Source of the DNA: Escherichia phage Utah
Reading direction: 5' to 3' (one strand)
Length of the DNA: 59,024 bases
Sequence record: KY014601.1
The notes beneath the pieces are model-generated. The model saw only the letters and a list, made by a program, of their open reading frames with translations. It was not told the DNA's origin and made no database searches. Both the position numbers and the translations under genes were made by a program. Shown one piece after another: positions 38,126-42,284 of the stretch (position 1 is the first letter of the stretch; every line of letters starts with the position of its first letter).

Positions 38126-40321
38126 GTGGCGGATGAAGACGTAGGTATCAGCGCGGCCAAACTGGTCGGCGAAGCCTTGCAGTGGAATGGCGCGAAGCCC
38201 AAACTCACATACCTGTCCCGGTGTGTGGGCGAAGCGTTAGCCATTTCCGCATTGAACATCGACGCGGCGAAAAACTTCGGGGAGGTTTTGCAGTGGGACG
38301 GTAAATTGCCGTCCATCTTCCGCGCGGCCGAGTTGGTCGGCGAAGTGCTGGCGATTCAGAAGATGGAGATCCGCGCGTCAACGATGGTCTGTGAAGCACT
38401 GGTCAAAGAGCCGCAATTTATGGCGGCCGAAATGATCTGCGAGGCTATCGGTCAGGCGGCCACGGAACGGCCACCGCTTTACGCAGATGCGGTTTATCAG
38501 TACGTCACGCAGCACGATGTCGTACCGCCGTTGTCGGATGTCATTTCGCCGGAAAGTCTGTACACGTTGTGGAATTACGCCATTGTCCAGCGGCCGATCG
38601 ATGCCCCGATTTCCTACAACATCGTGAAGCAGGCGGTGACGCTGTCCGTTCTGGCGTCGCCTATCGTGACTATTTCGTACGACAAGGTGAAGACCGCGTG
38701 GTCGTATGCCGTGGTGTCCGCGACGCTCGGTGACTTCCCGCTGCCGGATGAAATGTGGTCGAAGATCAGCACGAAACAGGCGTGGAATCTGGTATTGCAG
38801 TCGATCGACATCCCGTACGTCCCGACGTCTGGTGTGTTCGTTCGCCATGAATCGACGCTGGTGGTTCAGGCCCATCCGCTGCCGATGTACACGACGCCTG
38901 CGTCCGTGAAGTCGAACGTGGTTCTGGCCGCGCAGAAGCGCCCGGTTGAACGACTCCCGCGCTCAAGGACTCGCGTGGCGCAGGCATTATCGCAGGCCGT
39001 TACCGCGTTGCCGATCCCGATGCCCCGGTCAAACGTGTTCGCCGCGCAGACGCTGTCACAGGCGGTCATCCCGGCGGACTTCGTTGACCCGACTGTCGGT
39101 GTCGAGCACGCGGCCGCAGTGACGTCGTATGCTGTTTGCGAGTATCAGGTGTCGCTTCCTATCAGTTACACGCGCGCGAAGACCCTGACGCCGCTGGTGC
39201 TGCAATTTAGCGATAACCAACGAACCATCCCGCTGTCCACGATGCGCACCAAACACGTTTCGTCTCAGTTCTTGGTCAAGTCTGACTTGCGCCCGGTGCT
39301 GTCTCGGATGCGCACCAAACACGTTTCGTCTCAGTTCTTGGTCAAGTCTGACTTGCGCCCGGTGCTGTCTCGGACGCGCGTTAAACAGGTACGCGGCTAT
39401 GCGGTGCGGGCGGAAGAGTACACGCCTCCGATTAACCTGCTGGTATGGTCGCGCGCTGACGCTGTTCGCATGTCGGTGGTGCAGCAGGCAACGGACTACC
39501 CTGACCCGGGAATACCTACAACGTCGGCCATCGTTAGTGCGGCCACGGCGTACCACGTCATGAAAGCGCTGGACTACGAAGACCCGAACGATATGTGGGA
39601 GGCGAGCAAGGTTCAGACCGTGCCGCAGTTATTAGAGAAGGTGGTGAAAGCCCAACCGCTCCGGCTCCCGATCTCGTACGCTCCGCTGGCGCAATTTGTT
39701 GAACTGGTGACGCGGTACCAATACATGCCGCCTCCGGGTGAAGTTGCCGAGTCCGGTATCCATGTTCGTCAGGTAATGCAGCCAGTGGCGTTCCGCGCGA
39801 CGTACCCTGACCCGACTGTCCCGGTATCCTACCTGACGGTCAATCAGGTACTGGAGCACATCGCGACCCCGGCCGACTACCCGGACGCCCACCTGCCGAC
39901 GTCGGACGCGATTGTAAATCAGGTATTGGAACACGTTGCGCAGATTGACGATTTCCCTGATCCCGGTACCATGTTCCGGCCGCTTATTGTCAGCCAGATC
40001 ATTCAGCAGGCGGCACAGGATGCGTCTTACCCGGATTGGAGCACACTGCATAAACCGCTTGCGGTTCAGCAGGTAATTCAGCATGTATCAATGACGGCGG
40101 AATACCCTGACAAGGACGTCCCGCAATCATTTGCAAAGGTGTCTCAAGTTTTGCAGCACTATGCCGATAAAGCTAATTACCCAGACAAAGATGCTCCCCA
40201 ATCCACGCTACGAGTCCGTCAGGTACTTGAGCAGGTAATGATGCGCGACAAGTCGATGTACGAAATGCCGCAGCCACCACGGAAACATCGGGTGCAAATC
40301 ACTTGCCGCTTTGTGTACTGA
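38126..40321 (+). CDS. Highly repetitive protein (N-terminal VGEALQW repeats, tandem 22-aa duplication, C-terminal YPD repeats); possible fibre
   Basis: 731 aa; GTG start after AAGGGGG RBS; repeats LVGEALQWNG / FGEVLQWDG / LVGEVLAI; six or more YPDx units with VNQVLEH / VSQVLQH. Confidence 0.5.
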   Translation: MADEDVGISAAKLVGEALQWNGAKPKLTYLSRCVGEALAISALNIDAAKNFGEVLQWDGKLPSIFRAAELVGEVLAIQKMEIRASTMVCEALVKEPQFMAAEMICEAIGQAATERPPLYADAVYQYVTQHDVVPPLSDVISPESLYTLWNYAIVQRPIDAPISYNIVKQAVTLSVLASPIVTISYDKVKTAWSYAVVSATLGDFPLPDEMWSKISTKQAWNLVLQSIDIPYVPTSGVFVRHESTLVVQAHPLPMYTTPASVKSNVVLAAQKRPVERLPRSRTRVAQALSQAVTALPIPMPRSNVFAAQTLSQAVIPADFVDPTVGVEHAAAVTSYAVCEYQVSLPISYTRAKTLTPLVLQFSDNQRTIPLSTMRTKHVSSQFLVKSDLRPVLSRMRTKHVSSQFLVKSDLRPVLSRTRVKQVRGYAVRAEEYTPPINLLVWSRADAVRMSVVQQATDYPDPGIPTTSAIVSAATAYHVMKALDYEDPNDMWEASKVQTVPQLLEKVVKAQPLRLPISYAPLAQFVELVTRYQYMPPPGEVAESGIHVRQVMQPVAFRATYPDPTVPVSYLTVNQVLEHIATPADYPDAHLPTSDAIVNQVLEHVAQIDDFPDPGTMFRPLIVSQIIQQAAQDASYPDWSTLHKPLAVQQVIQHVSMTAEYPDKDVPQSFAKVSQVLQHYADKANYPDKDAPQSTLRVRQVLEQVMMRDKSMYEMPQPPRKHRVQITCRFVY
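39241..39372 (+). repeat. Perfect 66-bp tandem duplication inside the repeat-protein gene
   Basis: 39241-39306 is identical to 39307-39372 (GATGCGCACCAAACACGTTTCG...GTGCTGTCTCG), encoding MRTKHVSSQFLVKSDLRPVLSR twice. Confidence 0.9.
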
Positions 40322-40339
40322 CAATTGACGGGTTAATAT
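40311..40339 (+). promoter_or_regulatory. Candidate promoter for lysis cassette (TTGTGT-17-TAATAT) directly abutting a terminator hairpin
   Basis: TTGTGT 40311-40316, TAATAT 40334-40339; predicted start would fall inside the 5' arm of the 40344-40370 hairpin. Confidence 0.35.
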
Positions 40340-40343
40340 TCTT

Positions 40344-40370
40344 AGCGGGCTTGTCCCGCTAATTTTTTTT
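40344..40370 (+). terminator. Rho-independent terminator after repeat-protein gene
   Basis: AGCGGG-CTTGT-CCCGCT followed by TTTTTTTT (40363-40370). Confidence 0.7.
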
Positions 40371-40385
40371 GTGAGGAAGCACCCA

Positions 40386-40724
40386 ATGAGCGAAATGGAA
40401 CGGGAACGGCCGGGGGATACCTCCGGCGGCATCAAGTTAGACTTGTCTGTCAATCTCCCCACGATTCTGACGATGGCTTCGATGCTGGTGGCGGCGGTAC
40501 TGTACGTCAATAACCGCTTCGCCGACCTATCAAATCAGAACACGCAGACGGACACCCGGCTTACCAACGTAGAGAAACGTCAGGACTCCACTGAAGCGGC
40601 GTTCACGGTTCTCCGGGCCGAAACCGTCTCGCAAAACTCCGCCCTTCGATCAGACCTTCGCGCCGACATGCGCGACCTGAAACAAAGCGTGGATACCCTA
40701 TCTTCCCAAATGATGAGGAAATAA
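40386..40724 (+). CDS. Putative holin-like membrane protein with C-terminal coiled-coil
   Basis: 112 aa from ATG 40386 (RBS GAGGAAG); single TM-like segment LPTILTMASMLVAAVLYV; directly upstream of lysin-like gene. Confidence 0.4.
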   Translation: MSEMERERPGDTSGGIKLDLSVNLPTILTMASMLVAAVLYVNNRFADLSNQNTQTDTRLTNVEKRQDSTEAAFTVLRAETVSQNSALRSDLRADMRDLKQSVDTLSSQMMRK

Positions 40725-40727
40725 CCG

Positions 40728-41441
40728 ATGGCTAAACAGAAGCCGCGCGGGATTCGCAATAACAACCCGGGCAACATCGAGTGGGGGTCGCCGTGGCAAG
40801 GGCTGATCCCGCGTAACGAGGCGACGGACAGCCGCTTCGCGCAGTTCAAAGACCCGGCATCCGGCATCCGCGCCATTGCTGTCACCCTGACCACCTACTA
40901 CGACAAGCGCAAGGCCAACGACGGCAGCAAAATCGACTCGGTTCGCGAAGTGATCGAGCGGTGGGCACCCGCCGTTGAGAACAACGTATCTGCATACGCT
41001 AAACAGGTGGCCGCCGTTCTGGCCGTTGACCCGAATAGCGAAACGCTGAATCTCCACGACTACGACACCATGCGCGGTCTGGTGGAAGGCATCATCCGCC
41101 ACGAAAACGGGAACCCGGAAGCGTTCGGCCTGACGCCGTACAGCAACGCGAATATGTGGTACTCGGACGAAGTGATCGAGGAGGGTCTGCGCCGGGCGGG
41201 CATCGTTAAGGCGGCCAAGCCTGTTAACCGTACCACCGTGGCCGCGACAAGCGTGGCAGGACTCGGCGCGGCGCAACTGGTTGACATGGTACAGCCCGTC
41301 AAGGCTGCGATGGACAGCGCCCACGGTGATATTTCTTCCGGTGATTGGGTACGCATCGCATTCGGCGCGGCCACAATCGCGATTGGCCTGTACATGGGAT
41401 GGGTCGCGTACCGGAAGCATCGGGCCGGGGCCGCTGCATGA
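40728..41441 (+). CDS. Putative peptidoglycan hydrolase (endolysin-like) with C-terminal transmembrane segment
   Basis: 237 aa; N-terminal GIRNNNPGNIEW motif that I recall from phage muramidase-type proteins (family uncertain); C-terminal hydrophobic WVRIAFGAATIAIGLYMGWVAY; followed by spanins. Confidence 0.45.
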   Translation: MAKQKPRGIRNNNPGNIEWGSPWQGLIPRNEATDSRFAQFKDPASGIRAIAVTLTTYYDKRKANDGSKIDSVREVIERWAPAVENNVSAYAKQVAAVLAVDPNSETLNLHDYDTMRGLVEGIIRHENGNPEAFGLTPYSNANMWYSDEVIEEGLRRAGIVKAAKPVNRTTVAATSVAGLGAAQLVDMVQPVKAAMDSAHGDISSGDWVRIAFGAATIAIGLYMGWVAYRKHRAGAAA

Positions 41442-41692
41442 CGGGGCTACTCGCCCGGATTAAGACGGGCGTCCTTGCGGCGCTCGTTTTCGTTGTGGCC
41501 CTCTTCGGCGTCTGGCGGGCAGGACGCGCGAAGGGCAAACAGGATCAGATTAATAACCAGAACTACGACACGTTGCGGGAACAGGCAAACGCGGATAAAA
41601 ATGTGGCCGAGGTGCATAATGAAATCAATAAACTCCCTGATGGTGGCGCTAACGATCTGCTTCGCCGTAAGTGGATGCGTCGAAAGGATTAA
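41438..41692 (+). CDS. Inner-membrane spanin (Rz-like)
   Basis: 84 aa from ATG 41438 (ATGA overlap with previous stop); N-terminal TM GVLAALVFVVALFGVW, then charged coiled-coil region. Confidence 0.5.
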   Translation: MTGLLARIKTGVLAALVFVVALFGVWRAGRAKGKQDQINNQNYDTLREQANADKNVAEVHNEINKLPDGGANDLLRRKWMRRKD

Positions 41693-41822
41693 CCCTGCGC
41701 CGTCTTTCTGTTCTGTCGCGCGCGCCATCTACATCGGCGAGGAAGACGTGCTGACAGATGAAACCGCACGGCAGATCGCCACCCACGATGAAATCGGCGA
41801 ACGGCTATGCGGCTGGAAATAG
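41619..41822 (+). CDS. Outer-membrane lipoprotein spanin (Rz1-like), overlapping i-spanin in another frame
   Basis: 67 aa from ATG 41619; signal peptide with lipobox LTICFAVSGC. Confidence 0.5.
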   Translation: MKSINSLMVALTICFAVSGCVERINPAPSFCSVARAIYIGEEDVLTDETARQIATHDEIGERLCGWK

Positions 41823-42284
41823 TTAAATGGTCGGGTGGGTAATAATCACAGTACGTTCACCCTCGATTGTCTGGTGGTACCGCAGTGAGGACACCAGATG
41901 ATCGAGGTTATTGAAGACCGGGATATTCAGCCGCTTCGCCTCTTCCACCTCAGCGCGGGTACCGGAACTGCGCATCGCATCTTCGCCAATCAGCAGAACC
42001 GCGTCACAACGGCGCATCAATTCCATCGTGCATTCCAGCCAATATTCGTCCGGTATCTCGCCCTCTGTCTTGTGCTCGAAGTGGGCCGTGTTCAGGTGCG
42101 GAGTAACCGGGAACATCTTGTGGACGTAAAGTTGATCGACAACCGACACGGCCGTCTCTTCGGCTTTCAGGATGTTGACCGTCGTCGGAACGGTGCAGCC
42201 CGAACCGATGATGTACGGGCGGTACGGCCCGGCCAGATAGATCATGACGGGCTTGGCCGCCGGGTTACACATATTCACGTTCAT
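41823..42284 (-). CDS. Nucleoside 2'-deoxyribosyltransferase / DNPH1-like protein
   Basis: 153 aa; VMIYLAGPY N-terminal motif and LLIGEDAMRSSGTRAEVEEA resembling the catalytic-Glu region of deoxyribosyltransferase-fold enzymes. Confidence 0.5.
   Translation of the reverse strand: MNVNMCNPAAKPVMIYLAGPYRPYIIGSGCTVPTTVNILKAEETAVSVVDQLYVHKMFPVTPHLNTAHFEHKTEGEIPDEYWLECTMELMRRCDAVLLIGEDAMRSSGTRAEVEEAKRLNIPVFNNLDHLVSSLRYHQTIEGERTVIITHPTI

Follow-up and report, generated by a model that had tools for sequence, protein, structure and literature searches.

A Chivirus lysis cassette in Escherichia phage Utah whose endolysin ends in a membrane module

How does an endolysin reach the cell wall when its hydrophobic segment is located at the C-terminus and no export signal is present at the N-terminus? 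This question is raised by the region 40386–41822 of Escherichia phage Utah (KY014601.1); the window referred to below is the whole stretch that was analysed, 59,024 nucleotides in length. The region is the late host-lysis cassette of a Chi-like siphophage (Chivirus) and consists of four tightly packed genes on the plus strand, encoding a membrane protein, a lysin, an i-spanin and an o-spanin. A check of the open reading frames (ORFs) placed all four, to the base, where a first-pass annotation made from the letters alone had put them. The lysin belongs to one of the few endolysin classes that fit neither the holin-release route nor the N-terminal signal-anchor-release (SAR) route over the inner membrane, and proteins of the M4Lys type already serve as single-gene lysis devices. 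Its gene can be subdivided as follows.

40728–41441, plus strand: endolysin of 237 amino acids, M4Lys/Enc34-ORF39 type (ATG 40728, TGA 41441), with a PHA02564 catalytic domain and a C-terminal membrane module
40728–41207, plus strand: catalytic domain, residues 1–160, with the N-terminal motif, W79, Y90 and the catalytic E126, delimited with AlphaFold2 (AF2) and Foldseek
41232–41300, plus strand: proximal segment, residues 169–191 (TTVAATSVAGLGAAQLVDMVQPV), weakly hydrophobic and Gly/Ala/Ser/Thr-rich (Kyte-Doolittle (KD) hydropathy 1.33; Gly/Ala/Ser/Thr (GAST) fraction 0.48)
41346–41411, plus strand: distal transmembrane helix, residues 207–228 (WVRIAFGAATIAIGLYMGWVAY), from hydropathy (KD up to 1.57; GAST 0.41)
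41412–41438, plus strand: basic tail RKHRAGAAA, following the distal transmembrane helix

The lysin begins with MAKQKPRGIRNNNPGNIEW, the motif GIRNNNPGNIEW occupies residues 8–19, and the chain starts (MAKQKPRGIRNNNPGN) directly inside the catalytic domain. With phmmer, residues 5–162 match the Enc34 endolysin's catalytic domain (PDB 7Q47) at E = 1.4e-74. The AF2 model, built with 82 homologues, reaches a predicted local distance difference test (pLDDT) score above 90 over residues 1–160, and Foldseek superposes it on 7Q47 with a template modelling (TM) score of 0.96, a root-mean-square deviation of 1.2 Å and 72% identity; overall, the two catalytic domains are given as 71–72% identical. W79, Y90 and E126 are invariant in the 82 homologues and the GIRNNNPGN motif is mostly so. 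The active-site groove of the Enc34 enzyme contains W79, Y95 and the catalytic E131 (PMC8943055); since Enc34 carries a 5-residue insertion after the WAP motif, the latter two correspond to Y90 and E126 in the window lysin. In PHROGs the protein falls into phrog_873, 'endolysin' (E = 8e-83), and scans of all four cassette proteins against Pfam and NCBIfam gave no match above threshold. Judged by homology, the 237-residue protein is a phage endolysin of the glycosidase-type Enc34/PHA02564 fold with Glu126 as the predicted catalytic residue and with a muralytic activity assigned from its homologues, in agreement with the peptidoglycan hydrolase proposed by the first-pass annotation.

The experimental counterpart is M4Lys (ORF_38, 'lysis protein A') of Salmonella phage BSPM4, described by Bai et al. 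in 2020 (PMC7143992). It is the sister-phage version of the window gene: 235 of the 237 residues are identical (99.2%), and the only differences, T106M and M143T, are both situated within the catalytic domain, away from W79, Y90 and E126. The cassette order is the same, and the neighbouring upstream membrane protein (the gp37-like protein, ORF_37 in BSPM4) and i-spanin show 2 residue differences each. Full-length M4Lys alone lyses E. coli in 20–60 min, and azide at 1–10 mM, which is a weak test of Sec dependence, delays this lysis and does not prevent it (PMC7143992). Residues 1–206, i.e. the protein without its distal transmembrane domain (TMD), are soluble, non-lytic from within and able to degrade purified peptidoglycan, with products that indicate a glucosaminidase and possibly an endopeptidase (PMC7143992). 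Residues 158–237 alone are bacteriostatic, and among the truncations 1–226 and 1–225 are lytic and 1–224 is not (PMC7143992). For this near-identical protein it was thus shown that the full distal TMD is required for reaching the wall from within, and that gp37 and azide-sensitive SecA are not (PMC7143992). Table 1 of the same paper lists a trans-complementation plasmid (1–206 plus 158–237), without a reported result. Two ways in which the lysin assignment might have failed had been named beforehand, a lack of muralytic activity and a C-terminus that is a buried helix; the activity of the TMD-less form and the requirement of the TMD for lysis from within speak against both (PMC7143992). In view of the sequence identity, these measurements (peptidoglycan degradation and a TMD-dependent, ORF_37-independent, azide-insensitive lysis) should apply to the window lysin.

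The Enc34 endolysin, ORF39 (PDB 7Q47, PMC8943055), displays the same organization, a PHA02564 domain followed by a C-terminal two-helix TMD and encoded in a four-gene cassette. It differs in the 5-residue insertion and in the host (Hafnia), and its crystal contains the truncated catalytic domain only. The full-length protein is toxic, and the deltaC form is soluble and active (PMC8943055). In the paper on the crystal structure, Cernooka et al. state that there is no known mechanism by which a C-terminal signal would export an N-terminal domain, and that the holin-endolysin system needs more study (PMC8943055, 2022). The suspicion of the first-pass annotation that the release of the lysin may be unusual is therefore also the view of their discussion. 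The architecture itself is already known: it was first flagged for phage Siskin in 2019, followed by M4Lys in 2020 and the Enc34 structure in 2022. Being identical to a GenBank protein and 99.2% identical to M4Lys, the window lysin adds no new member to the family. In the literature on M4Lys, Enc34, PHA02564 and Chivirus, only applied or engineering follow-up was found and no later mechanistic or topology study. New here, and possibly useful for the design of experiments, are the family-wide charge layout of the membrane module, which predicts an N-in/C-in hairpin, and the lack of conservation of the upstream 'holin', in contrast to the spanins. The distribution of TMD-lysins is moreover wider than 'Chivirus and some relatives'.

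Both hydrophobic segments of the lysin lie in its membrane module. No N-terminal signal or SAR segment was found by hydropathy, as no hydrophobic window precedes residue 169, and the protein thus lacks the weakly hydrophobic N-terminal signal-anchor that defines a SAR endolysin. The hydrophobic C-terminal segment reported in the first-pass annotation is present; a second, weaker one at residues 169–191 had been missed. Between the two lies an acidic loop (residues 192–206). The GAST fractions of these segments (0.48 and 0.41) are higher than those of the TMDs of the gp37-like protein (0.33) and the i-spanin (0.31). In the window lysin the linker RRAGIVKAAKPVNR before the proximal segment has a net charge of +5, the loop of −2 and the tail of +3. 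The same pattern is observed in the 82 homologues (52–97% identity), with mean charges of +4.1 for the proximal flank, −1.6 for the loop (always negative) and +2.5 for the tail. Within the module Q183, A194, S204 and G205 are invariant in these sequences and G213 almost invariant; Arg or Gln occupies position 209. Gly or Ala is present with few exceptions at positions 213, 218, 220 and 224, and such small residues suggest helix-helix packing. All full-length homologues listed retain the C-terminal module. In distant subfamilies with ~35% identity in the catalytic domain (L039–L043, L046), the C-terminal sequences are unrelated to that of the window, and the order of elements is kept: a basic linker, an Ala/Thr/Gly-rich segment with an acidic residue, a short loop, a true TMD and a basic tail.

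This family-wide positive-inside charge pattern favours a hairpin of N-in/C-in topology whose short periplasmic loop is acidic, and in which the proximal segment would possibly be the first, SAR-like membrane helix. Hairpins of the N-in/C-in kind can insert independently of SecA, as is known for M13 procoat and YidC. A SecA-independent insertion of the hairpin would fit the azide-insensitive lysis by M4Lys. Among the predictors applied to M4Lys, TMHMM alone called the proximal segment a TMD (PMC7143992), and a two-helix TMD is given in both the Siskin and the Enc34 papers. The Siskin announcement described an endolysin with two C-terminal TMDs, N-in/C-in, and regarded the holin and the endolysin as potentially new classes (PMC6498227, 2019). 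AF2 cannot choose between one and two transmembrane helices, as the pLDDT of the membrane module is 36–68 (below 50 in the proximal region).

Upstream of the lysin, the cassette opens with the gene of a candidate holin.

40386–40724, plus strand: gp37-like protein of 112 amino acids (ATG 40386, TAA 40724), first gene of the cassette

It had been described as a single-pass membrane protein with a long charged C-terminal region, and this is what is found: one hydrophobic stretch at residues ~20–42 (nucleotides ~40443–40511; KD over a 19-mer up to 1.76), followed by ~70 polar and charged residues. AF2 models residues 20–111 as one continuous long helix, and a motif at the start of the TMD, G-I-K-L-D-L-S-x-N-L-P-T-I, is conserved among the homologues. 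The protein has the general look of a holin (small, one TMD, a charged C-terminal region, a gene adjoining that of the endolysin), and no holin family was matched in Pfam or NCBIfam. Its PHROGs family, phrog_7686 (E = 1.9e-57), bears the label 'Rz-like spanin', and the one resemblance to a family that it shows, to the i-spanin LysB, stays below threshold (E = 0.016). The matches to V-SNARE, TraP and LysB were dismissed as sub-threshold coiled-coil noise, and a dual-start (antiholin) motif, M1/M4, that is present in the window protein was dropped because it is not conserved in the homologues. In GenBank this one 112-residue protein goes by four incompatible names, all of them predictions (holin, Rz-like spanin, lysis protein B and putative endolysin 2). 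The Siskin announcement predicted a holin with an N-terminal TMD, N-out/C-in (PMC6498227). Expressed alone, the BSPM4 homologue ORF_37 has almost no effect on growth and is not lytic; together with the soluble M4Lys(1–206) it causes no lysis, and together with full-length M4Lys lysis is slightly slower (PMC7143992). The gp37-like protein is thus best described as a candidate holin or lysis regulator.

The setting of such lysins elsewhere was surveyed in 80 viral loci with a PHA02564-type catalytic domain. The domain is joined to a C-terminal TMD in 32 of the 80 loci (219–270 amino acids; one ORF called at 354), stands alone in 41 (133–196 amino acids; one over-extended ORF called at 222) and is embedded in a large virion protein in the other 7 (830–1744 amino acids). 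As a stand-alone soluble cytoplasmic endolysin in many phages, the catalytic domain needs no periplasmic folding. One apparent N-terminally anchored variant (L038) was rejected, as its ORF had been called too long and really begins at MALQPRGIRNNNPGN. Beyond Chivirus, the TMD-lysin form is found in ~110-kb SSU5/pHCM2-like phage-plasmids (Cronobacter, Salmonella), in a Pasteurella prophage and in a phage that goes by the name of Xanthomonas phage XAP3. Most of the TMD-lysin loci examined have a homologous i-spanin and an overlapped o-spanin with a lipobox downstream. A gp37-like protein (N-terminal TMD and long helix) is found in the Chi-like phages and, at 22–29% identity, in four other loci (L027, L029, L030, L031). 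In the SSU5-like elements (L004 at 2166–2489, L015–L019, L021–L023) an unrelated protein of 104–111 amino acids stands ahead of the TMD-lysin. The N-terminal part of this candidate lysis partner is soluble and helical, and its single TMD is located at the C-terminus (…FFGGIVSKITSFLITALLLGLAAYGVKNGLQ), as a mirror image of gp37. In the Pasteurella prophage (L005) the gene before the TMD-lysin encodes an 85-residue protein without a clear TMD, and in three loci (L006, L024, L025) no small same-strand membrane ORF adjoins the TMD-lysin. The upstream 'holin' is thus not conserved family-wide, unlike the spanins and the membrane module of the lysin, in line with the experiments on M4Lys, in which ORF_37 was dispensable.

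From these observations the following mechanism can be proposed, to which we give a probability of roughly 0.5. The membrane module would insert Sec-independently as an N-in/C-in hairpin, with helix 169–191 and TMD 207–228 arranged around the acidic periplasmic loop. The folded catalytic domain would first build up on the cytoplasmic side of the inner membrane, to which it would be tethered. The module is needed for the enzyme to get to the murein and at high dose also suffices for it, as was shown with M4Lys; once a critical level is reached, it would itself compromise the inner membrane, by perturbing or permeabilizing it. In this scheme gp37 would tune or trigger the timing and would not be an indispensable large-hole holin. 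Lastly, the i-/o-spanin pair would disrupt the outer membrane, as expected from its family membership.

Several observations weigh against this mechanism. The hydrophobicity of the proximal segment is marginal (KD 1.33), and the segment contains the invariant Gln183 and mostly an acidic residue at 186 and lies in the part of the AF2 model with pLDDT below 50; for M4Lys, Phobius and Phyre2 gave one TMD with the N-terminus outside (PMC7143992). M4Lys(1–206) includes the proximal segment and is yet soluble, the TMD module alone is bacteriostatic and not lytic, and it was only with T7 overexpression that M4Lys was seen to lyse cells by itself (PMC7143992). As M4Lys 1–226 is lytic, the basic tail is dispensable, which weakens the argument from charge. 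Homology offers no help either: against PHROGs and Pfam, residues 157–237 matched only their own endolysin PHROG and no holin family, and an exhaustive HMMER search with residues 158–237 against 1.84 billion representatives returned 16 matches, all of them C-termini or fragments of lysins. In the loci without an adjoining membrane ORF a holin may lie elsewhere, and L006 does have small membrane proteins on the opposite strand. Above all, a tethered domain of ~18 kDa must still cross the membrane, which is the weakest point of every model.

A more specific form of the hairpin mechanism can be derived from the comparison with holins. Class II holins such as the pinholin S21 68 form a two-helix N-in/C-in hairpin with a weak, SAR-like helix 1, small-residue packing in helix 2 and a basic C-terminal tail. 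Lysin residues 155–237 may have a similar layout: their charge pattern fits N-in/C-in, but the proximal segment has a marginal hydrophobicity (KD 1.33) and a low AF2 confidence. Unlike in the pinholin, an enzyme of 160 residues is fused ahead of the putative hairpin and would prevent helix 1 from leaving to the periplasm; no sequence homology is detectable, and hole formation is only putative. The idea of a fusion with a known holin found no support in homology, as none of the 16 matches is a convincing stand-alone homologue; the short ones (58–171 amino acids) are fragments, internal deletions or chimeric ORFs and do not constitute a stand-alone holin family. It is tentatively conceivable that the last 80 residues form an integral two-helix module of the pinholin type, so that the protein would be a self-contained 'holin-endolysin' able to breach the inner membrane unaided, with gp37 not as the holin but as an exchangeable timing regulator or inhibitor. 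If true, this would explain why the same lysin occurs with unrelated partners, or none, across lineages.

A different topology would follow if the module acted as a reversed signal-anchor. SAR endolysins such as P1 Lyz and R of phage 21 carry a muralytic domain on a weakly hydrophobic, Gly/Ala-rich helix and lyse independently of a holin when overexpressed. These features, also summarised in PMC8943055 and PMC6139136, resemble those of the window lysin, and a dependence on membrane energisation may possibly be shared. The window lysin differs by its C-terminal anchor, the lack of an N-terminal export signal, the azide-insensitive lysis (M4Lys) and an unrelated catalytic fold. In such a 'C-terminal SAR' arrangement, only the distal helix would span the membrane, N-out/C-in; the catalytic domain would be held inactive in the periplasm until gp37, as a pinholin, depolarises the membrane and releases it. 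The single TMD with an outside N-terminus obtained with Phobius and Phyre2 would agree with this, as would the SAR-like Gly/Ala/Thr content of the distal TMD (GAST 0.41) and the holin-independent lysis on overexpression; the acidic loop and basic tail set the distal helix N-out/C-in under any model. The authors of the Enc34 paper speculate similarly (PMC8943055). A parallel is provided by LysAP of Acidovorax phage AP1, in which a C-terminal TMD (residues 194–216) is likewise followed by cationic residues and was named a SAR peptide (PMC8879335). LysAP lyses E. coli alone, and deletion of its TMD abolishes lysis (PMC8879335). Its catalytic domain, however, is of the GH24 type (T4-lysozyme-like) and unrelated to PHA02564, and, in contrast to ORF_37, its holin HolAP stops growth and makes lysis stronger (PMC8879335). 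The reversed anchor is nevertheless doubtful, since no known pathway moves an N-terminal domain of ~200 residues without a signal sequence (PMC8943055), and the conserved linker upstream of the proximal segment, with its charge of +4 to +5, would need to cross as well. Azide did not block lysis by M4Lys, gp37 alone is non-toxic, unlike pinholins, and the conserved proximal hydrophobic segment would be left without explanation.

It could also be assumed that the system is a canonical holin-endolysin pair with a tether. In that case gp37 would be a large-hole holin in the infected cell, the module would only concentrate the enzyme at the inner membrane, and the lysis by M4Lys alone would be an artefact of T7 overexpression. 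The holin-like appearance of gp37 as first gene of the cassette, its conservation in the Chi-like phages and recognisable presence in distant ones, the merely bacteriostatic effect of the TMD module and the choice of 'holin' by the Siskin annotators are all compatible with this. The expression data point in the opposite direction, as ORF_37 alone barely alters growth, does not enable lysis by M4Lys(1–206) and slows lysis by full-length M4Lys (PMC7143992). In other lineages gp37 is replaced or not adjacent, whereas the membrane module of the lysin is always kept. With the dual start not conserved and the LysB match as the only family resemblance, we consider a classical holin role for gp37 unlikely and return to the hairpin mechanism as the favoured explanation.

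The survey also contains the material for a last alternative, in which the 237-residue protein would be a fragment of a virion or ejection protein with a buried C-terminal helix. The catalytic domain is embedded around residue 245 of ~835-residue proteins in six loci (L066, L067, L080, L081, L085, L086) and around residue 580 of a protein of more than 1744 residues in L049, and it also makes up the N-terminus of gp29, a core protein of phage E1004 (PDB 9vvp). The enzyme therefore serves both wall penetration at entry and lysis at exit. Despite these 7 loci, the E1004 core protein, a 'virion protein' label for the domain and PHROGs labels that include tape measure and head protein, a virion origin of the window lysin is hardly credible and already refuted by published enzymology: its gene is situated between a holin-like gene and the spanins, past the terminator that closes the tail module, M4Lys(1–206) and Enc34 deltaC, which lack the C-terminus, are soluble muralytic proteins (PMC7143992, PMC8943055), expression of M4Lys lyses cells, and AF2 gives no confident packing of the C-terminal helix.

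The final step of lysis is assigned to the two downstream genes.

41438–41692, plus strand: i-spanin of 84 amino acids with an N-terminal TMD at residues ~8–26 (KD 2.19); phrog_1026, also annotated in Siskin
41619–41822, plus strand: o-spanin, lipoprotein precursor of 67 amino acids with the lipobox VSGC (V17-S18-G19-C20, nucleotides 41667–41678); phrog_1275

The ATG of the i-spanin (41438) overlaps the stop codon of the lysin as ATGA. The o-spanin starts at ATG 41619 in the +1 frame relative to the i-spanin, overlaps it by 74 nucleotides and ends at 41822, compared to 41692 for the i-spanin. The pair is thus an overlapped two-component spanin, as had been recognised from the lipoprotein start inside the i-spanin gene, and the PHROGs matches (E = 2.1e-23 and 4e-24, respectively; 'Rz-like spanin') agree with it. 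Kongari et al. assigned Chi, iEPS5 and Enc34 to 'Chi' families of i- and o-spanins, the architecture of which is overlapped (PMC6139136). In these families, too, the i-spanin has an N-terminal TMD and the o-spanin is a lipoprotein whose +1-frame gene begins within that of the i-spanin and runs past its end (PMC6139136). The window spanins show no notable difference from them; both are short, and the i-spanin contains no cysteine. Opposite the i-spanin lies a 93-residue antisense ORF (41447–41728, minus strand), called 'tail protein' in the RefSeq record of BSPM4 (HWB10_gp39) and hypothetical in TS13 (AP13_039). The RefSeq BSPM4 record has no coding sequence for the i-spanin. The antisense ORF is probably a spurious call that displaced the real i-spanin; it corresponds to 'ORF_39' in the M4Lys paper.

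The cassette is widely shared among relatives. At a nucleotide identity of at least 90%, 102 phage records match 40300–41900, nearly all of them Chi-like Salmonella siphophages (Chivirus, Casjensviridae), with identities of 99.4% for TS13, 99.0% for iEPS5, 98.1% for BSPM4 and 97.8% for Siskin. The lysin, i-spanin and o-spanin are identical to the TS13 proteins. Protein homologues down to ~35% identity retain the cassette layout, and this conservation, together with the 102 records, indicates that the ORFs are real genes and not chance ORFs. Since the first 25 kb of the window also match the same Chi-like group at 98–99%, the window as a whole represents a complete Chivirus genome. Copies of the cassette with ~98% identity are also found in GU169904.1 (Staphylococcus phage SA1, 147 kb) and OR848973.1 (Listeria phage LM 4-14-1, 2.9 kb), and matches to the first 25 kb occur in further records under the names Listeria, Enterococcus and Staphylococcus. 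These entries are most likely contaminated or chimeric.

On the 5' side the cassette is bounded by a terminator, which closes the upstream tail module with its 731-residue gene.

40342–40370, plus strand: intrinsic terminator from a terminator scan, stem-loop TTAGCGGGC-TTGTC-CCGCTAA and a T8 run, annotated in phage Siskin too

The genes 3' of the cassette are located on the opposite strand. The first of them, at 41823–42284 (minus strand), is directly downstream and convergent, and encodes a nucleoside 2-deoxyribosyltransferase-like protein according to the annotation in Siskin and RefSeq relatives. The 731-residue ORF upstream of the terminator (38126–40321, plus strand) is annotated in relatives only as a hypothetical or tail protein. 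It contains many degenerate repeats of ~30–40 residues with 'YPD' motifs between them, and an exact tandem duplication of MRTKHVSSQFLVKSDLRPVLSR (two copies).

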